Below are positions 2,012-55,088 of a DNA stretch of 64,000 nt, piece by piece (position 1 is the first letter of the stretch; each line of letters starts with the position of its first letter). Location of the stretch: the IMG/VR virus record IMGVR_UViG_2595698395_000001, positions 8,370 to 72,369 of that record, one strand, 5' to 3'. The position numbers were made by a program, and so were the translations under genes. The notes beneath the pieces are model-generated. The model did no database searches and was not told where the DNA came from. It saw nothing but the letters and a program-made list of their open reading frames with translations. The stretch comes from a virus (taxonomy: Duplodnaviria > Caudoviricetes).

Positions 2012-2680
2012 TTAGTTCTTTATTGTGTAAATTATGTTTTGTTCTTTTGCTTGTATTACTGGCATTAAAATTAATTCTGAGGGGCCAATCTTAAATAATA
2101 CAGGGCTAGATGGTTCTAATATTTCTGAAACCTCAATTAAGTCAATGTTTAAAGAATCGCATATAGCTTTAAGTTCTAATATTCTGGAGAAACTCAACCT
2201 AGTTGATTTGATGTCTATATAAGAATTTTCGTCAAAAATTTTGCGTCCTGATTTTGTTCTTTTAGATTTAGGAATATTTCCTTCTCCTTCGCAAACAGGG
2301 CAATCAAAATCTCTACAGTGTCCTTTAAATTCCCATTCAACTTCTCCGCTGCCTTCACATTCTTTGCATTCTCCATCTGTATTTGTCTCTATATATTCAT
2401 CCACAGTAGGTATCATCTTTTCTATGTCTGATAAAACACTGTACTTTATATTAAAAGAACTAATGAATTTTTCTTTAAAAAAAGATGGACACTTACGGAT
2501 AAGAGAATCGTCTTCCTGAACTTTATACCCATCGACCATATACTTGGGAACTCTAAGCATTGCACATGCATTTGTTGAATAAATATAAAGACCTATAGCG
2601 AATGGTTTATGAAATAAAGGTCTATATAAATCTGTTCCAGACACACTTTCAAGCGCTTTTTTGATGTTTTCTGTTTTCAT
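2012..2680 (-). CDS. Phage protein with DnaJ-type CxxCxGxG zinc finger
   Basis: CKECEGSG and CPVCEGEG motifs. Confidence 0.65.
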   Translation of the reverse strand: MKTENIKKALESVSGTDLYRPLFHKPFAIGLYIYSTNACAMLRVPKYMVDGYKVQEDDSLIRKCPSFFKEKFISSFNIKYSVLSDIEKMIPTVDEYIETNTDGECKECEGSGEVEWEFKGHCRDFDCPVCEGEGNIPKSKRTKSGRKIFDENSYIDIKSTRLSFSRILELKAICDSLNIDLIEVSEILEPSSPVLFKIGPSELILMPVIQAKEQNIIYTIKN

Positions 2681-2682
2681 AA

Positions 2683-3072
2683 TTAAATTTGATTTAAAAA
2701 TTTATAAAATGCAGTTAAAAAAGGTTTTACGTTAGTTGAATCACTCCATCCTGCAAAACCTATAAAGCCTTCGCCTTCTTTATCTTGAGTATTAAATGAA
2801 ATAGCCTCTCTTCTTTCAAAGTGAACTTGTTTTCCGTCTATAACACCTTTAACCATAAAGAAGCATTTTTTTAGGGTTCCATCTTCTTTGTACTCAATAT
2901 CCCTTTCTCTTAATCTACACAAAGTCATAGTAAAACCGTCGTTTTCAAAAACAGATAACTCTTCTTTTAAAAGCCTCGTTAATACTCCTATTTCTTTACT
3001 GCCAATATCCGAGTAGGTTAACCCTTTTTTAGATACTTCTTCTCTTAGATCACTTCTTTTCATGTTTTCCAT
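2683..3072 (-). CDS. Hypothetical phage protein
   Basis: 129-aa ORF in the leftward operon. Confidence 0.65.
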   Translation of the reverse strand: MENMKRSDLREEVSKKGLTYSDIGSKEIGVLTRLLKEELSVFENDGFTMTLCRLRERDIEYKEDGTLKKCFFMVKGVIDGKQVHFERREAISFNTQDKEGEGFIGFAGWSDSTNVKPFLTAFYKFLNQI

Positions 3073-3105
3073 AATACGTTTTTTAGATTAAATTATTAAT
3101 GAGTT

Positions 3106-3325
3106 CAAATATATGTAAATATTTGTAAACTTGTGTATTTTATTATGAAAAATAATTGTTGTTCAATGGTTGTTCAAATTTCATTGGACCAATGACGGCA
3201 AGTGCCGCCAGTACTGCATTGACTTCTTTGGCTCCGTGCCCGGAGTTAGAATACGTTTTTTAAAAGAAATACTTGCACAGTATGTTTTTTGGATATATAT
3301 TTACATATCTTTACAAATATGTACA
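3106..3325. promoter_or_regulatory. Divergent control region: minus-strand Bacteroidota -7 box (TATATTTG, 3106-3113), phased TGTAAA/TTTACA repeats and a GC-rich palindromic core
   Basis: TGTAAA at 3114 and 3124; TTTACA at 3300 and 3310, TGTACA at 3320; TCATTGGACCAATGA, CGGCAAGTGCCG and CTCCGTGCCCGGAG between 3181 and 3245. Confidence 0.5.
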
Positions 3326-3346
3326 GAAATTAAAAACAAATAAATT

Positions 3347-3526
3347 ATGGAATTATTTACAGAAGTAGAATTTAATAAAAACGAATTTGATAAGATAGAT
3401 GAAGTCAGATTTAAGTTAGGTGAAGATGGATGGGAGGAAATTAACAAGACTGAACATAGAGTTATCAAATCAAATAAAGATGTAGTTGTTGGAGCAGTTA
3501 AATATAAATGGAGGCGAATAATTTAA
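3347..3526 (+). CDS. Hypothetical 59-aa protein
   Basis: Manual ORF MELFTEVEF...WRRII with an A-rich Bacteroidota-type leader. Confidence 0.55.
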   Translation: MELFTEVEFNKNEFDKIDEVRFKLGEDGWEEINKTEHRVIKSNKDVVVGAVKYKWRRII

Positions 3527-3565
3527 CCTACAAATCAAAAACTAATTTAATTAAATAAATGAATT

Positions 3566-3904
3566 ATGAATAAGCAGAAAGAAAACAAAGAAACAGAAAC
3601 TAAGCATAAACTAAGTAATGTGTTATCTCGTTTGCATGATGTTGGTGCTCATTTCAGGCTTGAAGACTATGAAGATGAATTTGTTTTATCAATAATTGAT
3701 AGAGGCATTTATCCTAGAATTTGGTCGGATAATTTTGCAGATAATCAGGTAGTTATTATTGCTGAAACGGATGATAACTTAATTAACAGAAACACCATTC
3801 ATTCTAAAGATTGGAAGGAAAGGTGGTATGGCGAAACTTTAGATGAAGTACTTTATGAAGCTTATGAATGGTTATCATCTTTAAATATCGAAAAAACAAC
3901 ATAA
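3566..3904 (+). CDS. Hypothetical protein, possible decayed distal cassette
   Basis: ORF track; in-frame GAT-GTT-GGT (LHDVG) at 3641 resembles the cassette junction peptide. Confidence 0.6.
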   Translation: MNKQKENKETETKHKLSNVLSRLHDVGAHFRLEDYEDEFVLSIIDRGIYPRIWSDNFADNQVVIIAETDDNLINRNTIHSKDWKERWYGETLDEVLYEAYEWLSSLNIEKTT

Positions 3905-3917
3905 AAACAAATGAATT

Positions 3918-4259
3918 ATGATAACAGAAAATGATATTAAGATAGTAGAAGCTATTAAAAAGGAAATTGACAAAAAGGCAACGACCAATGAAAATACAAT
4001 AGATTGGGAAGCAGTACAAAAGATTGAAGTACTCGATAGATTAGTAAATAATTTACGTATAGCCAATGTTAGCTACTGTGTCGTTTCTGATGAAGATAAA
4101 GCCAATAATTACTATACTGCAGAATGTGGTAAGTGCGATTGGTGGGGAAGCTCTAAGCTATTAGAGGGCGGTGGATCAATAGCTGATACAGGTGATTATT
4201 TTGACTGCTCTTGCCCTGTGTGTGGAAATGATGATGTAGGTGAAAGGCATTGTAGCTAA
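3918..4259 (+). CDS. Cassette protein: helical N-module plus C-terminal Cys zinc-ribbon
   Basis: Junction peptide LRIANV|SYC at GTT 4068; CGKC...CSCPVC; the stop TAA lies within GTAGCTAAC. Confidence 0.7.
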   Translation: MITENDIKIVEAIKKEIDKKATTNENTIDWEAVQKIEVLDRLVNNLRIANVSYCVVSDEDKANNYYTAECGKCDWWGSSKLLEGGGSIADTGDYFDCSCPVCGNDDVGERHCS

Positions 4260-4319
4260 CGGTTTGTGTATGATTTCGGGCGTGAATTAAGCTAAATATT
4301 AATAGATAAAAACAAAATT

Positions 4320-4487
4320 ATGAGTAAGTATAAACCAGAAATAGACGAAAACAAACCTTTTGATTTTGAAACAAACTTTGTTGTTTGTCAATGTGAGGAA
4401 TCAGACATATCTGATAGACATTTGGGTGATGCAGGGTATGATTGGTGCAAAAATTGCAAAAGGCCATTAGCAGTTATTGATTATTAA
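4320..4487 (+). CDS. Cassette protein, 55 aa, Cys zinc-ribbon
   Basis: Manual ORF MSKYKPEID...CQC...WCKNCKRPLAVIDY. Confidence 0.6.
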   Translation: MSKYKPEIDENKPFDFETNFVVCQCEESDISDRHLGDAGYDWCKNCKRPLAVIDY

Positions 4488-4491
4488 TGAT

Positions 4492-4613
4492 AACGCTTGC
4501 AGGTATGTTTAGTGCCTGATTAAATAGTATAAATTTTTAAAATACAGATAACGATGAAAAAAGAACAGAACTTGAATAATGCAGAAACACAGGCATTAAA
4601 TATACCTGTTGTT
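4492..4613 (+). repeat. attC-like hairpin enclosing the start of ORF 4554
   Basis: AAC-gcttg-CAGGTATGTTTAGTGCCTG ... CAGGCATTAAATATACCTG-tt-GTT. Confidence 0.8.
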
Positions 4614-4859
4614 ATGTCCCGTTTTGATATTGAGCGTAAGGATTTGTATGAATATGACAAACCAAAAGAACGCACAAGAAAACGACTTACTGAAATGTCT
4701 GAATGTGGTATGGAAGAAACAGGTATTGCTTCATTTGGTTATAATGGCATAATGAGTGGTTTGTATATCGAAAAAGTGTGGGGATATTCTGATGAAGATT
4801 TCAAAGATTATATGGATTGGGCGAAAGGTTTAATTGCAGCTTCCTTAAATGGGGCATAA
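4554..4859 (+). CDS. Cassette protein, hypothetical
   Basis: Junction ALNIPVV|MSR; ends GTTATGTCCCGTTT / AAATGGGGCATAAC. Confidence 0.7.
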   Translation: MKKEQNLNNAETQALNIPVVMSRFDIERKDLYEYDKPKERTRKRLTEMSECGMEETGIASFGYNGIMSGLYIEKVWGYSDEDFKDYMDWAKGLIAASLNGA

Positions 4860-4904
4860 CGGTGATAGGTATGGTTAGAAAATTTAACGATTAAATAAAA
4901 CGAA

Positions 4905-5192
4905 ATGAAAACGCCAGAAGAAATATTAAATGAAGTTGCTACTGAAAATATGATAAATATACAGCAAATGGTAACAACTAAACAATTAGCAATAATTGCA
5001 ATGAGAAGATACGCCAAATTATACCACGAAAGTAAGGTTAAAAATTTGGATATACAACGTGTTAGCCAACAACGTGAACTGTTAAAGTTTTTTTCTTCTC
5101 AATTAAGCGAGAACCTTGATATAGATGTAGGAATGAATTATATAACAGAAGAAGATATTGAAGAATGCCTAAAAAACTTTAATTGCGGGTAA
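4905..5192 (+). CDS. Cassette protein, hypothetical
   Basis: Junction LDIQRV|SQQRELL; stop lies within GGGTAAC. Confidence 0.65.
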   Translation: MKTPEEILNEVATENMINIQQMVTTKQLAIIAMRRYAKLYHESKVKNLDIQRVSQQRELLKFFSSQLSENLDIDVGMNYITEEDIEECLKNFNCG

Positions 5193-5242
5193 CAATGCTA
5201 TATAGCTAACTACACAAACTAATTGAATTAAAACAATAAATT

Positions 5243-5467
5243 ATGATTAAAGAAAACAGTAACCAAGAAAGCAAAAGCAATGAACTTTATATATTGTTAC
5301 CTACTGTAGAAAATACGGACAAAGAAGAACTAAACTTAATTAACAGTCTAAAAGAATATATAGATTGGTATGGTTGCAGAGATAGTAAAATGGATAAAAT
5401 ACTGCCAATAGAACAACAAGAAGGAATTGTAGTAACAGCAATGACTTTATTAAAAGAACTAACGTAG
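5243..5467 (+). CDS. Cassette protein, hypothetical
   Basis: Junction LYILL|PT; ends GTTACCTACTGTA / TATTGTTGGTAAC. Confidence 0.6.
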   Translation: MIKENSNQESKSNELYILLPTVENTDKEELNLINSLKEYIDWYGCRDSKMDKILPIEQQEGIVVTAMTLLKELT

Positions 5468-5484
5468 TATTTTATATTGTTGGT

Positions 5485-5607
5485 AACATATTTGGGTATG
5501 GAAAGTACGAGTAAATAAACAGTAATTTTTAGTAAAACACAAAATAAAGTAAATATGAAATTAAATAGAAATAGTAAGATAAGTAAGTATTTTTTATACC
5601 CGTTGTT
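5485..5607 (+). repeat. attC-like hairpin enclosing the start of ORF 5555
   Basis: AAC-atattt-GGGTATGGAAAGTAC ... GTATTTTTTATACCC-gtt-GTT. Confidence 0.8.
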
Positions 5608-5770
5608 ATATGTAGTGCTTACAATACCTTTTGCGCTTTTTGCAATATTGTACTACAGCTCTAAAATAACACGAAGTTTAAGTTATCTATGCGTTTTTAA
5701 AATAGAAAGCGCAAAGCAAGAAATCACAGACTTTTGGAGCATAGAAACAGCTTTGGGAGATGTATTTTAA
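5555..5770 (+). CDS. Cassette protein, small membrane protein
   Basis: Hydrophobic FLYPLLYVVLTIPFALFAILYY; ends GTTATATGTAGTG / CATTACATATAAC. Confidence 0.6.
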   Translation: MKLNRNSKISKYFLYPLLYVVLTIPFALFAILYYSSKITRSLSYLCVFKIESAKQEITDFWSIETALGDVF

Positions 5771-5832
5771 CATTACATATAACGTTAAAATATATGGCTA
5801 GTTGCGGAATTAATAACTTAAAATAACAAGTA

Positions 5833-6177
5833 ATGACAGAATTAGACAAAAAGATTAAGGATTTAAAAGACTTTATTAAACAGAAAACAGACCAAGGAAC
5901 TGCAAACTACTTAGGTAAAGAAATACGAGAAATTTGCGGAATGGTAGAAACTGAGCAATTAAATAAAGAGAAAAACAAACTTACCTCTAAAAATGAAGCA
6001 CTTAACCAGCAATTAATTTTATCTGGTGTTAGCGGTAGTAATTTACTACCTGATGGATGGAAGGTTTATGAATGTACTGACTGCCAAGAGATAAATGTAA
6101 AAAAAGATAATAGACAAATAACCGTTGGATTATGTGATAACTGTGAACATCCATTATGGAATGATGATGTTGATTAG
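5833..6177 (+). CDS. Cassette protein: coiled N-module plus CxxC..CxxC zinc ribbon
   Basis: Junction LILSGV|SGS; CTDC and CDNC; ends GTTAGCGGTAGTA / TATTACCGCTAAC. Confidence 0.7.
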   Translation: MTELDKKIKDLKDFIKQKTDQGTANYLGKEIREICGMVETEQLNKEKNKLTSKNEALNQQLILSGVSGSNLLPDGWKVYECTDCQEINVKKDNRQITVGLCDNCEHPLWNDDVD

Positions 6178-6237
6178 TATTACCGCTAACGGTTAGTTGT
6201 ATGGCTTGTTGCCGAATAATCACAAAACAAAATAAAG

Positions 6238-6549
6238 ATGAACATATACGAATTTAGTTATTCTGGAGGCGAAACCGATTGGGTTTTTGCACCAAACATT
6301 AAAGAGGCAAAAGATTTCTATTTAAAATTTACAGGTTGTGGCGACTTAACATTAACTACGGTTAAAAGAGTGCCTAAAAGTAAATGGAATGAAATGTACT
6401 TATTAGACCCAAATTATAGTGAGCCAGATGAGGACGAAGAAGATTATAATGAAGAAGATTATTCTTGTGGGTTAAAAATTATAGAAACTTTTGCAGAGTA
6501 TGCAGAAAGAAATACTATTACTGATATGATAGCAACAACCGAGTATTAA
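6238..6549 (+). CDS. Cassette protein, acidic hypothetical
   Basis: ORF track; lies between left arms at 6188 and 6554. Confidence 0.7.
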   Translation: MNIYEFSYSGGETDWVFAPNIKEAKDFYLKFTGCGDLTLTTVKRVPKSKWNEMYLLDPNYSEPDEDEEDYNEEDYSCGLKIIETFAEYAERNTITDMIATTEY

Positions 6550-6553
6550 TGGT

Positions 6554-6644
6554 AACGGCTCTGGGCTATGATTTCGTGCCTATATAATGACGGAACATTG
6601 AATTAAGCACCAATCTAACAAGGGTATGAATTATAGCCCTTGTT
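6554..6644 (+). repeat. attC-like hairpin with non-coding loop
   Basis: AAC-ggctct-GGGCTATGATTTCGTGCC ... GGTATGAATTATAGCCC-tt-GTT. Confidence 0.85.
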
Positions 6645-6659
6645 GTAAATAGTAAAATT

Positions 6660-6812
6660 ATGGCAAAGTATAAGATTGAAATTAACCAAACTTGGAGTGA
6701 AGAAGTAATTGTAAATGCAAAGAACGCAACCGAAGCAAAGAAATTAGCTTGGGAAAAGTGGAAAGCTAAAAAAAGTAACTATAATTTATTTGTGGAGAAA
6801 GAACCTGAATAA
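6660..6812 (+). CDS. Cassette protein, 50 aa
   Basis: Manual ORF MAKYKIEINQTWSEEVIVNAKNATEAKKLAW...; flanks GTTGTAAATAGTAAAATTA / TAATTTTATTGTTTACAAC (17/19 complementary). Confidence 0.7.
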   Translation: MAKYKIEINQTWSEEVIVNAKNATEAKKLAWEKWKAKKSNYNLFVEKEPE

Positions 6813-6825
6813 TTTTATTGTTTAC

Positions 6826-7020
6826 AACGAAAATAGATATGAATTGATTTTTAAACGAATAAATAAGATGAAAATAAAAGAAGCAATACAAGTATTAAAA
6901 GACCATAATATATGGCGAAAAGGTGAAAATGAAGAAGTGCAAATGACAGACCCTAAAAAATTAGGAGTTGCCATTGATACAGTAGTAAATAAGTTTGAAA
7001 ATTTGTTTATATCTGATGTT
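6826..7020 (+). repeat. attC-like hairpin with a ~150-nt coding loop
   Basis: AAC-gaaaat-AGATATGAATTGATTTTTAAAC ... GTTTGAAAATTTGTTTATATCT-gat-GTT. Confidence 0.75.
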
Positions 7021-7185
7021 ACCCAATGTGAAGCCACAAAGACAACAAATAAAATCGAAGAAATACAGGTTTCTGTAGATAAAAAACTATTTGTTGAGTT
7101 ATATAACTTTGCTTATAAAAAAGCAGTAAAAACAAATACAGTAGCAGAATTACACGATATTGATAGAAGGCTTCATGGTGGGTAA
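6868..7185 (+). CDS. Cassette protein, two modules (probable start MKIKEAIQ at 6868 rather than 6790)
   Basis: Junction LFISDV|TQCEA; ends GTTACCCAATGTGAAGCC / GGCTTCATGGTGGGTAAC. Confidence 0.7.
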   Translation: MKIKEAIQVLKDHNIWRKGENEEVQMTDPKKLGVAIDTVVNKFENLFISDVTQCEATKTTNKIEEIQVSVDKKLFVELYNFAYKKAVKTNTVAELHDIDRRLHGG

Positions 7186-7230
7186 CGCTAAGTATATGAG
7201 CCGTTTTTTCTATGGCTTATATACATTGTT
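7184..7230 (+). repeat. Minimal 47-bp attC-like hairpin
   Basis: AAC-gctaa-GTATATGAGCCGT-tttttct-ATGGCTTATATAC-att-GTT. Confidence 0.85.
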
Positions 7231-7261
7231 ACCTGTTGTACGGATTAATTAAAAATGGAAT

Positions 7262-7990
7262 ATGAAAAGAAACGAAATATATTTAGGGGATTGTTTAGAA
7301 TTAATGCCTAAACACGTAGAAGATAAAAGTATTGATATGATTTTTTGCGATTTGCCTTATGGAACTACACAATGCAAATGGGATAGTATTATTGATTTAG
7401 ATAAGTTGTGGAACGAATACAGAAGAGTAATAAAAGATAATGGTGTAATAGTTCTTTTTGCTTCTCAGCCATTTACAAGTATATTGACAAGTAGTAATTT
7501 AAAGATGTTTAAATACTCTTACACTTGGGATAAGATAACCAAAACAAACCACTTAAATGCTAAAAAGCAACCATTAAGACAAGTTGAAGATATTTGTGTA
7601 TTCTACAAAAAACAACCGACTTACAAGCCACAAGGATTGATTGAATGTGAAGTTTCTAATTTTAGACCAAATCATTTTAAATATAAAAAAGGTGAAAAGG
7701 TTTATGGAGAGCAAAAAGAACATGGTAACAAAAGCACTTATACAAACTATCCAAGTAACCTAATACAATACAGTAACGGGAATCATAATAGTTTGCACCC
7801 TACACAAAAGCCTTTAGATTTAATTGAGTATATGATAAAGACGTACACCAACGAAGGAGATTTAATACTTGATAATACTTGCGGAAGTGGAACAACGGGA
7901 TTAGGAGCAAAAAATCTTGGACGAAACTTTATTATGATGGAGCAAGACCCTAAATACTATGATGTAGCTTGCAAAAGAGTACTAACGTAG
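7262..7990 (+). CDS. Site-specific DNA methyltransferase (N6-A/N4-C, beta class) carried as a cassette
   Basis: DLPYG catalytic motif, HPTQKP, DNTCGSGTTG SAM-binding motif; flanks GTTACCTGTTGTAC / GTATTGCAGGTAAC. Confidence 0.9.
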   Translation: MKRNEIYLGDCLELMPKHVEDKSIDMIFCDLPYGTTQCKWDSIIDLDKLWNEYRRVIKDNGVIVLFASQPFTSILTSSNLKMFKYSYTWDKITKTNHLNAKKQPLRQVEDICVFYKKQPTYKPQGLIECEVSNFRPNHFKYKKGEKVYGEQKEHGNKSTYTNYPSNLIQYSNGNHNSLHPTQKPLDLIEYMIKTYTNEGDLILDNTCGSGTTGLGAKNLGRNFIMMEQDPKYYDVACKRVLT

Positions 7991-8036
7991 TATTGCAGGT
8001 AACAATGTTATATAACTAATTCAAAAAACTGAATCT

Positions 8037-8273
8037 ATGGAAACTACTGCAAAACAAGTGACTTTAAATATAATAGATGGTAAATTTACATCTTTAGAAT
8101 TGCAAAATTTACTTCAATTAATTGCACAAGAGTTGAAATTACAAACTACATCCAATTATGCTAAAGAAAACAAACTATCTTTTAATGGAGTTAAAAACTT
8201 TAGGCCTCATATTTTAATTGATGGAATCAAATTTCATTCAGACGGAATTATAGAAAATAGCTTACCTTTTTAA
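8037..8273 (+). CDS. Hypothetical protein, possibly DNA-binding
   Basis: 78-aa ORF immediately upstream of the integrase. Confidence 0.55.
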   Translation: METTAKQVTLNIIDGKFTSLELQNLLQLIAQELKLQTTSNYAKENKLSFNGVKNFRPHILIDGIKFHSDGIIENSLPF

Positions 8274-10255: not shown

Positions 10256-10290
10256 AAAAAACCCTTACTAGTAATATAGTAAGGGTTTTT
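10256..10290. terminator. Bidirectional intrinsic terminator between convergent operons
   Basis: AAAAACCCTTACTA-gtaata-TAGTAAGGGTTTTT. Confidence 0.85.
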
Positions 10291-10324: not shown

Positions 10325-10567
10325 TTATCTTTTTGCGTTAAAATTAATTTCTGAGTTTATTGCTTTTAATATTCTTGATGCTGTAACTATAGAGGGTCGT
10401 TTTAGCCCTCTGATTATCTTTGAAATATCGCCCTGACTTATACCCGTTTCGCGAGAAATGAAGCCCTGTGTAATTCCTAAATCTTGCATTCTTTCGCTTA
10501 CGTAGTCCGCAAACTGCATAATAATCTCTTGTTCTGTTTCCGTGTGATCGATATAAGTCTGAGCCAT
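10325..10567 (-). CDS. XRE-family (Cro/CI-like) HTH regulator
   Basis: GITQGFISRETGISQGDISKIIRGLKRPS. Confidence 0.88.
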   Translation of the reverse strand: MAQTYIDHTETEQEIIMQFADYVSERMQDLGITQGFISRETGISQGDISKIIRGLKRPSIVTASRILKAINSEINFNAKR

Positions 10568-11881: not shown

Positions 11882-12448
11882 TTATATACTTCTAAAGTAA
11901 TGGCCGTTACTCTCTGAATAGTCATACATTAAGTCCCTTGCTGCTCTTTCCCAGTCAATACAATTGTGAGGCCATGAATTTGATATTTCAACGCCTGTTT
12001 GTTCTGCTAAATCTTCTGCAAAATCTTCATCGCTATTGTATTGACCTGAATAACTATCCTCTAATGCATCAAAAAATTCGTCTATATCATTAATGTCATA
12101 GCTTCCTAGTTCTGCGAATGCTTCTACAATATCAGCATCATAAAAACAATTATCTAACCTATCAAAGTATTCAAATAATTTTTCAAAATCCATACTTTCA
12201 GAATAAAAAGCCTTTGGGAAATCCTCAAAATCTGTTATCATTGTTTCTTCTCTTGGACTGTCTAACGGACTTTTTTCGTCGCACTCTTGGAAGTGGTTTA
12301 AAATATACTCGTTCAATTCTTCTGCATCGCTAAATTGGTCTAACTCTACCCAGTGCCCAAACTCGAATTGTGTCCCATTGTTATAGCTTGCATAATCAGT
12401 TAAAAATATTCTTCCCTTTGTTGCTGTACTTGTTGTTGCTGTTGTCAT
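11882..12448 (-). CDS. ardA: Antirestriction protein ArdA (DNA mimic)
   Basis: Highly acidic; IFLTDYASYNNG..GHWVEL, ITDFE, YSGQYNSDEDFA, IDWERAARDLMYDY..NGHYF. Confidence 0.88.
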   Translation of the reverse strand: MTTATTSTATKGRIFLTDYASYNNGTQFEFGHWVELDQFSDAEELNEYILNHFQECDEKSPLDSPREETMITDFEDFPKAFYSESMDFEKLFEYFDRLDNCFYDADIVEAFAELGSYDINDIDEFFDALEDSYSGQYNSDEDFAEDLAEQTGVEISNSWPHNCIDWERAARDLMYDYSESNGHYFRSI

Positions 12449-54888: not shown

Positions 54889-55016
54889 AATTAGCTAGTC
54901 TTTCCTAGCAGTCATATTGACCTATCCCTTAAGCTATTAATCTCGACTAGCGAGGGGGATTCGAACCCCATTTAGATACCAATTCTCAATAAACGAGCAG
55001 AATCGAACTGCATTAG

Positions 55017-55088
55017 AGTTGTTGGTGAGATTCGAACTCACGATATTAGTTTTGCAGACTAACCTCTTAACCACTTGAGTACAACAAC
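55017..55088 (-). tRNA. trnC: tRNA-Cys (GCA), CCA not encoded
   Basis: GTTGTTG/CAACAAC acceptor, TTAGT-CTGCAAA-ACTAA anticodon arm, GTGAG-TTCGAAT-CTCAC T-arm, U discriminator; TAAATTTG promoter at 55149-55156 on the minus strand. Confidence 0.9.

Follow-up and report, generated by a model that had tools for sequence, protein, structure and literature searches.

We analysed a 64-kb stretch of viral DNA (the window), taken from the 72,369-nucleotide (nt) IMG/VR record IMGVR_UViG_2595698395_000001, with regard to a series of small genes that precede a tyrosine integrase gene. Comparison with related phages indicated that positions 4257 to 8003 probably form a phage-borne integron-like array, in which 11 gene cassettes would be exchanged site-specifically at an AAC triplet. 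The 11 cassettes lie on the + strand and are each delimited by YAAC boxes, the C residues of which are located at 4260, 4494, 4860, 5193, 5487, 5783, 6190, 6556, 6619, 6828, 7186, and 8003. Each cassette would start right after one YAAC box and end with the next, the exchange occurring inside or at the edge of the AAC triplet (the crossover point is written as a slash below). An attC-like site would lie to the right of each crossover and be read on the coding strand, its loop often holding the leader, the start codon, and the first codons, and G-T pairs would make the coding strand the better folder. The array would end at a non-palindromic docking site at 8000-8036, upstream of a 78-amino-acid (aa) open reading frame (ORF), designated ORF78, and the integrase gene.

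On the site strand, this proposed order of array, attI-like site, and integrase in the sense direction would correspond to the bottom strand of a canonical integron. However, all 10 cassette ORFs were found on the site strand and directed toward the integrase, rather than in the canonical arrangement on the top strand with a Pc promoter. Each site thus heads its gene, and transcription would run from the distal leader toward the integrase. A preliminary description of this DNA had called it an inverted integron; the term fits the orientation of the genes but not the platform, in which array, attI, and integrase follow the canonical order on the site strand.

The repeated element that defines the cassettes has the consensus (stop) TATT.. 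ATTG-N-YAAC/G-N7-GTATG-N6-TTGCG-(T)GAATTAA, followed by an A-rich leader and the next ATG, and nearly all stop codons in 4257-8003 overlap or precede it. The pattern TAACG-N8-TATG, with at most one mismatch, gave 28 matches against 15.5 expected, and its four exact matches (4491, 4857, 5780, and 6187) were all on the + strand. A hidden Markov model (HMM) trained on 28 sites of other phages, none taken from the window, gave 10 matches at E<10 in the 64 kb, eight of which fell within 4249-6851 on the + strand (best E 4.9e-4). It found 8 of the 12 window sites and missed those at 4860, 5193, 7186, and 8003. A strand-specific repeated intergenic element therefore exists and is confined to the array. 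Two further sites in the preliminary description, at 3641 and 3898, were matched by neither the pattern nor the HMM.

Crossovers at the AAC triplet

The closest relatives of the window are the Cellulophaga phages phi19:3, phi46:3, and phi18:3 (Pachyviridae), with 90-98% identity in blocks that cover it mosaically (43%, 34%, and 29%), and by this similarity the window comes from a marine flavobacterial phage that is an uncultured relative of the three. For two window cassettes, similar genes were found in other phages, namely in the Polaribacter phages Freya_1-10 (Forsetiviridae; 92% identity to one cassette) and in Cellulophaga phage phi10:1 (89% identity to the other). In the Freya phages, small co-directional genes are separated by the same element, and 57 nt lie between the end of the array and a 271-aa integrase gene that follows in the same orientation.

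Seven Freya isolates (Freya_1, 2, 5, 6, 8, 9, and 10) were compared. Freya_1, 2, 5, and 9 each have an array that matches the beginning of the Freya_10 array at 100% identity and is then joined immediately to the integrase-proximal site; in Freya_8 one internal unit is missing, and Freya_6 has its own 472-nt unit beside the integrase. All seven rearrangement junctions were located at ...YAAC/, with partners sharing 3-4 nt, and the integrase-proximal site was involved in six of them; six of the seven isolates differ at this site. For example, the left partner TTATTGTTTACAAC/GGATATGG and the right partner TAATTGTTGCTAAC/ACCCCTAT yielded the product TTATTGTTTACAAC/ACCCCTAT. Only AAC is common at the switch, and longer identical runs just left of the junctions (e.g., TAGTTTTTA) went unused, indicating a site-specific rather than a homologous exchange. 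The differences in genome length (842, 1744, 2216, 4040, 4635, and 4942 nt) are exactly the array differences, so the Freya_1-10 isolates appear to differ in the array only. The Polaribacter phages Danklef_3 and Danklef_5 differ by one methyltransferase cassette gained or lost, and its single junction is also at YAAC/.

In the Pachyviridae, the cassette at 4492-4862 is 99.2% identical to its counterpart in phi19:3 (locus L001, 4530-4900), and both ends of the homology lie at AAC(G). In phi19:3, ORF 4554 keeps the sequence that follows AAC/ at 4494, whereas the left flank differs. This cassette precedes the block 5230-5869 in the window and follows it in phi19:3, indicating that cassettes have been reordered. 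The block shared through the integrase starts at the AAC of 8003 in all six pairwise comparisons (within 2 nt in five), and the four phages have four different cassettes to the left of the same AAC/AATGTTATATAAC. These junctions agree with an integron-type crossover at a conserved triplet, to a resolution of the triplet plus or minus one bond. The preliminary description had suggested that the crossover may fall in AAC, that the hairpin would travel at the 5' end of its gene, and that 8001-8022 may act as attI, recommending that crossovers be mapped in related phages; all three proposals were supported, the last by the layout, the four terminal junctions, and the use of the equivalent Freya site.

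A few smaller shared segments were also observed. Window 4490-4626, comprising the site, leader, ATG, and 24 codons of ORF 4554, is 81% identical to 5077-5213 of a 327-kb IMG/VR contig (L026); the homology stops just past the GTT box, and the remaining parts of the two genes are unrelated. Similarly, window 5783-5869 and phi19:3 have a common site plus 12 codons before different genes. Judging from these alignments, sites together with the front ends of genes may move as modules. At the left end of the phi19:3 array, the homologue of ORF 5243 follows directly after the leader, and the differing segment is flanked by the direct repeat AATAAATTATG (3339-3349 and 5235-5245). The exact terminal-site pattern had no match in viral contigs and was found in one metagenomic contig, which is 99.98% identical to phi18:3 and added nothing.

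The junctions also bear on whether the repeats are regulatory cassettes like the PeSLs (promoter plus stem-loop) of T4-type phages, with modules shuffled by ordinary homologous recombination and no dedicated recombinase, which we consider very improbable. PeSLs combine a sigma-70 promoter with a terminator; they are located on either side of orphan ORFs, bring about shuffling, and give rise to mini-circles (Arbiol et al. 2010; PMC2839356). The two systems are alike in their repeated intergenic motifs flanking orphan genes, a hyperplastic phage region, modular shuffling, and circular intermediates, which for the present array are part of the proposal. Each unit here does have about 35 conserved nt (G-N7-GTATG..TTGCG.GAATTAA) and an A-rich leader upstream of its gene, and some Pachyviridae breakpoints fall at conserved start regions. 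However, PeSL exchange is described as driven by homology at points that vary between phages, whereas all eight Freya and Danklef junctions lie at the 3' edge of the similarity, at the shared triplet. Promoter-like sites numbered 30 against 35.9 expected, and terminator-like sites 3 against 2.5, with none at the repeats, so no counterpart to the pairing of promoter and terminator in each PeSL was found here; the promoter scan used the sigma-70 consensus rather than that of Bacteroidota and was thus a weak test of this half. Nor does homologous shuffling give a role to the complementarity between the two ends of a cassette.

Arm pairing and strand preference

On the + strand, a full site has YAAC/ followed, after a spacer of ~7 nt, by a GTAT(R) arm and a loop; beyond the loop are an ..ATAC arm and, separated from it by ~3 nt, a GTTR box. 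Loop lengths range from 7 to more than 250 nt, and the partner arm is usually 95-135 nt downstream, sometimes 27-50 nt or more than 160 nt. For 44 distinct sites from eight arrays, the 5' part was paired with the downstream regions of its own and of the other cassettes. Cognate arms were more stable than non-cognate ones (-11.33 versus -9.08 kcal/mol, p 7e-6), and 19 of the 44 sites ranked their own arm among the top 3 of 44. With each strand optimised separately, the + strand was better at 32 of the 44 sites (Wilcoxon p 4e-5), with a mean gain of 1.35 kcal/mol for cognate and 0.50 kcal/mol for non-cognate arms, in line with the earlier proposal that the coding strand is the one that folds. 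Among sites significant on either strand, the + strand was better at 18 of 20. Most mismatches in the best arms and flanks had been described as G-T pairs on the + strand, and in the 18 best duplexes, a set selected on + strand energy, G-T pairs indeed made up 48 of 420 pairs on the + strand as opposed to 4 of 316 on the - strand.

The far ends of the cassettes are matched to the sites as well. A complementary run of at least 6 nt between the GTT box and the YAAC box at the far end of the same cassette was present in 14 of 37 cognate pairs and 96 of 1332 non-cognate pairs (p 0.0035), and 10 of the 37 cognate pairs had a run of at least 8 nt. A circular cassette closed at AAC/ would require such complementarity, and a circle of this kind, with the site folded as single-stranded DNA, is the presumed intermediate. 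In the window, GTTATATGTA is complementary over 10 nt to its own cassette end TACATATAAC/ at 5783. The sequence GTTGTAAATAG..., which follows the compact hairpin at 6617-6644, is complementary to ...TTTACAAC/ at 6828, as reflected in an inverted repeat (I15; 6642-6661 versus 6809-6828, 90% over 20 nt). In the methyltransferase cassette, the 3' box GTTACCTG near 7228 is complementary over 8 nt to CAGGTAAC/ at 8003. A stem between the initial 42 nt and the final 45 nt of the same cassette was also examined and rejected (own -6.55 versus others -6.71, p 0.66), so that only the short GTT and YAAC boxes are cognate. A reading of the GTT box as an in-frame valine codon holds at 4611 and not at 5605 or ~5296, and is therefore not general.

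The 12 window sites were folded as 149-nt DNA on each strand and compared with shuffled sequences. The + strand was more stable at 9 of the 12 (by 0.9-4.1 kcal/mol) and the - strand at 3 (by 0.1-0.6 kcal/mol), a per-site comparison that the preliminary description had called for. At site 4494, the minimum-energy fold was -13.6 kcal/mol (z -2.10) on the + strand and -9.5 kcal/mol (z -0.74) on the - strand, and the cognate duplex of 4490-4615, with four G-T pairs, was -20.4 as opposed to -15.3. The loop of this site contains the leader, ATG 4554, and the first codons of ORF 4554-4859. Site 7186 gave -13.5 (z -2.03) on the + strand and -11.4 (z -1.90) on the - strand, and site 6619 had z -2.83 (+) and -3.16 (-). 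The attC-like architecture is clear at 4490-4615, 6617-6644, and 7181-7233 and in the 19 family sites with top-ranked arms. The repeated + strand element of the preliminary description thus stood and its hairpins were partly confirmed, whereas its gradient from crisp sites near the integrase to decayed distal ones was not confirmed, site 4494, which is distal, having the strongest hairpin.

Both arm pairs quoted there were present and appeared in the minimum-energy folds. The first, GTATATGAGCCGT/ATGGCTTATATAC, forms the stem at 7193-7225, in which both non-Watson-Crick pairs are G-T on the + strand and none is A-C; on direct reading, the same two stem positions hold G-T pairs in two Danklef sites. 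The second, GGGTATGGAAAGTAC/GTATTTTTTATACCC at 5494-5600, belongs to site 5487, which as a whole folded no better than shuffled sequences (z +1.67) and holds the ATG of ORF 5555 in its loop. Site 5188-5301 was not significant (z -0.58). Box 4257-4260 is followed by GG-N6-GTATG with weak arms (z +0.27). The last site had been said to have no partner arm, in agreement with its fold (z +0.93) and with a partner-arm rank of 35 of 43.

Two other kinds of secondary structure were seen in the arrays. A conserved non-coding element, AAGGGCGTGGTTTTG-N2-AAAAACCAAAT, forms a small hairpin in phi18:3 (L003, ~4440-4475) and in the g7-g8 spacer of Freya_10, and sits inside long cassette leaders. Hairpins of 60-70 nt of the type GTT...AAC/, in which the order of the outer boxes is reversed, terminate precisely at the crossover; they were seen at 3826-3886 and 4560-4631 of locus L002 and at 1598-1661 and 5391-5454 of the Freya_10 array. 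In each of them, a T-T mismatch adjoins a G-T pair at one common stem position, and compensatory changes occur in the inner stems; their role falls outside the proposed model. With the long hairpin of phi46:3 as a BLAST query, matches were found in phi46:3 and the Freya phages only.

The strand that folds is also the transcribed sense strand, so the hairpins could act mainly in mRNA, in processing, stability, or translation starts, with the G-T pairs reflecting G-U pairs of RNA folding. Start codons do lie inside the loops at 4554, 5243, and 5555, and RNA parameters favoured the + strand by 2.6 kcal/mol on average. However, an mRNA function leaves unexplained the invariant AAC junctions, the complementarity of the GTT box with its own distal YAAC box across a whole gene, and the arm-less terminal site. 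As the main function of the hairpins it appears quite improbable, although an mRNA role could coexist with one in DNA. The features of the array and its surroundings are listed in Table 1.

Table 1. Positions of the array features in the window (a slash marks the crossover)
Feature	Position	Strand	Remarks
Conserved array leader	3054..3349	+	First ORF 3170-3343; 95.6-96.6% identity to phi19:3, phi46:3, and phi18:3
YAAC box 1	4257..4260	+	TAA is the stop of ORF 3918-4259; HMM E 1.3
Complete long site	4490..4615	+	Box ATAAC/ 4490-4494; 5' arm 4499-4518; 3' arm and GTT box 4590-4615
Cassette with ORF 4554-4859 (phrog_33482)	4495..4860	+	Also in phi19:3, at another array position
YAAC box 3	4857..4860	+	TAA is the stop of ORF 4554-4859
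Site with box GGTAAC/, crossover 5193	5188..5301	+	Outer stem GGGTAACAAT pairs with ATTGTTACC at 5293-5301
Site with box TAAC/, crossover 5487	5484..5614	+	Arms 5494-5508 and 5586-5600; 3' box GTTATATGTA at 5605-5614
YAAC box	5780..5783	+	Continues as GTTAAAATATATGGCTAGTTGCGGAATTAA; HMM E 0.0048; no significant arm
YAAC box	6187..6190	+	Continues as GGTTAGTTGTATGGCTTGTTGCCGAATAA; best HMM match, E 4.9e-4; no significant arm
Empty cassette, 63 nt, without ORF	6553..6619	+	Boxes 6553-6556 and 6616-6619; HMM E 7.1 and 7.4
Compact hairpin site	6617..6644	+	TAAC/AAGGG-loop-CCCTTGTT(G), then GTTGTAAATAG...
CAAC box	6825..6828	+	Closes cassette 6620-6828 (ORF 6660-6812); HMM E 0.82
Complete compact attC-like site	7181..7233	+	GGTAAC/ - GCTAA - GTATATGAGCCGT - loop - ATGGCTTATATAC - ATT - GTTACC
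N6/N4 DNA methyltransferase cassette, ORF 7262-7990	7187..8003	+	PF01555, E 1.7e-32
attI-like terminal site	8000..8036	+	TAAC/AATGTTATATAACTAATTCAAAAAACTGAATCT; without partner arm
Conserved 78-aa ORF (ORF78) between terminal site and integrase	8037..8273	+	phrog_18952, E 2.5e-56
Tyrosine integrase, 428 aa	8292..9578	+	Phage_int_SAM_5 and Phage_integrase domains
Terminator-like hairpin ending the + strand unit	10257..10290	+	14-bp stem, then T tract

The layout runs from the leader through the small + strand ORFs to ORF78 and the 428-aa integrase. The leader adjoins a divergent intergenic region (3073-3169), and its homology to the three Cellulophaga phages stops at ATG 3347; it is likely the promoter region of the array. 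The hairpin after the integrase is the sole terminator-like hairpin of the array-integrase unit. Upstream of the array, ORF 2012-2680 (-) gave a zinc-ribbon-like match (Anti-TRAP, DnaJ CXXCXGXG) below the cut-off. Downstream are genes for an HTH_3 repressor-like protein (10325-10567, -) and an ArdA anti-restriction protein (11882-12448, -), and a tRNA-Cys (GCA) gene is located at 55016-55088 (-).

Terminal site and candidate recombinases

The arrangement of terminal site, ORF78, and integrase is syntenic in all four phages, while the cassette joined to it is different in each, indicating that the terminal site has been used repeatedly in genomes with this single tyrosine recombinase. In the 72,369-nt record, the 428-aa integrase is the sole PF00589 match. 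A second attI-like copy, AATGCTATATAGCTAA, was observed mid-array at 5194-5209, with 14 of 16 positions identical to the terminal 8004-8019, as part of a direct repeat (D3; 5182-5234 versus 7992-8044, 75%); it suggests that the array part 3347-5193 formerly constituted an array end of its own or came in as a block. In phi10:1 (Assiduviridae; L004, 2690-2730), a YAAC box, TAGTATTTTATATTGGCGGTAAC/AATAGTGTATAGTTAC, stands beside the cassette common with the window, and the sequence after this box resembles the terminal site of the Pachyviridae.

The enzymes beside the arrays are of two kinds. The distant relatives of the window integrase are prophage integrases of Porphyromonas and Bacteroides phages, and a search for further relatives found none in viral contigs and none in 185,579 species genomes. 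The window and Freya integrases were unrelated by BLASTP (E 0.59). The 271-aa Freya enzyme matched TIGR02249 with 96.5 bits (cut-off 265) and the XerA/integron-integrase model with 146 bits, both below the cut-offs. Its nearest solved relatives are archaeal XerA and VchIntIA (2a3v), the alignment with VchIntIA ending at residue 171. Neither the window nor the Freya enzyme is an IntI with the extra domain of integron integrases. For ORF78, the matches to excisionase-type HTH_17 and to DUF3853 were all sub-threshold; as a lead only, these matches suggest that it may be an excisionase-type helix-turn-helix protein. An origin of ORF78 as the remnant of an Xer-like integrase was rejected, as BLASTP gave no similarity.

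At all four IMG/VR loci that encode relatives of the Freya integrase (36-39% identity) and include upstream sequence, a TAAC/TATAT... site immediately precedes the integrase gene, and 14 of the 16 HMM matches there lie upstream on the integrase strand; one of these loci is the contig L026 that shares the site at 4490-4626 with the window. More than 508 relatives of the Freya-type recombinase (31-40% identity) were found in bacterial and some archaeal assemblies, many of them from Flavobacterium and Algoriphagus. At 80 bacterial loci (L033-L112), the phage-trained HMM gave six matches, all downstream of the recombinase on the opposite strand; by these positions, the bacterial loci would have the canonical gene-site polarity, unlike the phages. 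In Danklef_1, _5, and _3 (L021-L023), the integrase is truncated: the tblastn match is confined to residues 96-271, and what is annotated as the 'integrase' is a fragment of 43 aa.

These data allow for a cluster of orphan sites, similar to a CALIN (cluster of attC sites lacking integron integrases), in which the integrase and ORF78 are a neighbouring lysogeny module and cassettes are moved in trans by an Xer/IntI-like recombinase of the host or a co-infecting phage. We regard this as quite possible, if somewhat short of an even prospect. It agrees with the Phage_int_SAM_5 type and prophage kinship of the integrase, with the weak excisionase-type and DUF3853 leads for ORF78, with Freya and the IMG/VR contigs, where small Xer-like integrases adjoin arrays that have these sites and some cassette parts in common, with the retention of the Danklef array despite its truncated integrase, and with the many bacterial relatives of the Xer-like enzyme, a large share of them in Flavobacteriia. 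The conserved synteny at the terminal site speaks against it, as does the failure to find a prophage copy of this integrase in the 185,579 species genomes. With respect to the catalyst itself, a small Xer/IntI-like recombinase supplied in trans from the host or a co-infecting phage comes close to an even prospect, and the adjacent 428-aa integrase is a possible but rather doubtful candidate. In Bacteroidota, integrases of the IntDOT type accept heterology in the overlap region, and by analogy such a tolerance could explain junctions with just 3 nt of identity.

Comparison with known gene arrays

Several observations weigh against the interpretation of 4257-8003 as an integron-like array. Only 3 of the 12 window sites reached z<=-2 on the + strand (4494, 6619, and 7186) and 1 of 12 on the - strand, and 6 of the 12 had no significant partner arm. 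For shorter segments (-5..+32, -45..+3, and -45..+55; 36-37 sites), z was about -0.3 to -0.4 whichever strand was folded, with part of this folding based on mononucleotide shuffles; the 3' arms at +95 to +135 lie outside these segments, which accounts for the null result. The non-cognate baseline of -0.50 kcal/mol indicates that the strand asymmetry is partly compositional and partly specific. Among the seven ends of homology blocks longer than 300 nt in Pachyviridae arrays, three are at AAC and four elsewhere, namely at a start codon, at GAATTAAA, in the leader-like AATAAATTATG, and 36 nt into ORF 5833. The left-end difference between the window and phi19:3 lies between two copies of AATAAATTATG, and the alignment indicates that variation at this end arises by a route other than AAC exchange; the preliminary description had counted new cassettes at the left end against its own reading, and variation does occur there, by this other route. 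The nested Freya series is compatible with serial deletion as well as serial gain. Finally, the window integrase had no TIGR02249 or NF011946 match at E<=0.01, its best match being XerD with 29.5 bits (cut-off 329.6), and the presence of two unrelated enzymes beside the same kind of site weakens the case for the neighbouring gene as the catalyst.

In the usual view, integrons are bacterial devices whose polarity is fixed and whose integrases form a single dedicated family. Compared with class 1 integrons and the chromosomal integrons of Vibrio, the phage array is similar in being made of promoter-poor single-gene units and in its crossover at one conserved triplet, AA/C here being equivalent to G/TT. 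Those phage sites that have clear arms share with attC the imperfect palindrome, with outer YAAC/GTT boxes around the inner arms, spacers of unequal length, and a variable loop; also alike is the non-palindromic terminal site beside a tyrosine recombinase gene, where variation is concentrated. However, the cassette genes of the phages are on the recombinogenic strand, so that the site heads the gene and often contains its start codon, and transcription is directed toward the integrase instead of away from a Pc promoter. Furthermore, strand choice in the phages seems to be marked by G-T pairs, the adjacent enzyme (428 aa and SAM_5-type here, 271 aa and Xer-like in Freya) has no IntI hallmark, and the carrier is a phage.

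Clusters of attC-type sites in phages have been reported previously. Qi et al. (2023; PMC9892861) described CALINs in phages, including one at the DNA methyltransferase genes of Polaribacter phage P12002L, and a predicted P12002L attC recombined with attI1 under IntI1. We found that P12002L has sites of the present family on the gene strand beside its methyltransferase genes. Their clusters resemble the present array as phage-borne attC-type sites around accessory genes. They noted 'divergent directions' in P12002L, whereas the available parts of their paper report no reversed polarity, terminal attI-like site, non-IntI recombinase, or natural series of gain and loss. There is likewise no IntI near the window array. 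The rAID-1 arrays of Bacteroidales have repeats 'reminiscent of integrons' and a XerD-family recombinase, and their structure suggests active gene acquisition, with immunity genes as cargo (Ross et al. 2019; bioRxiv 10.1101/471110). As far as the available part of that report describes them, they share with the present array the Bacteroidota background, intergenic repeats, and a tyrosine recombinase, but their recombinase lies 5' of co-directional genes on a bacterial chromosome, whereas the window integrase is located 3' of its array and belongs to the SAM_5 type. No XerD-like recombinase was found 5' of the window array.

In the accessible text of Bartlau et al. (PMC8776804), the terms 'variable region' and 'indel' do not occur, and the passages on Freya and on integrases do not mention an array. 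In the literature searched, no account was found of phage arrays with reversed polarity or of the Freya series. The mirror-image phage array would be a variant of the integron principle. A broader reading, which we consider conceivable but unlikely, is that flavobacterial phages run their own integron-equivalent, for which more than one unrelated tyrosine recombinase has been recruited, with one cassette pool shared between families. The engines would then be the small Xer-like enzyme and, in Pachyviridae, a heterology-tolerant IntDOT-type integrase with a Xis-like partner, and the start codons in the coding-strand site loops would allow the same reaction to swap N-terminal coding parts.

The logic of integrons is thus seen in no fewer than four lineages of cultured marine phages (Pachyviridae, Forsetiviridae, Incheonvirus, and, with one site, Assiduviridae), with genes of reversed polarity and with integrases other than IntI. 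Since both the Freya isolates and their host have been cultured, gain, loss, strand choice, and the enzyme are open to direct testing. From the presence of DNA methyltransferase cassettes, the system probably serves to exchange accessory genes, including those for anti-restriction, among phages of different host genera.

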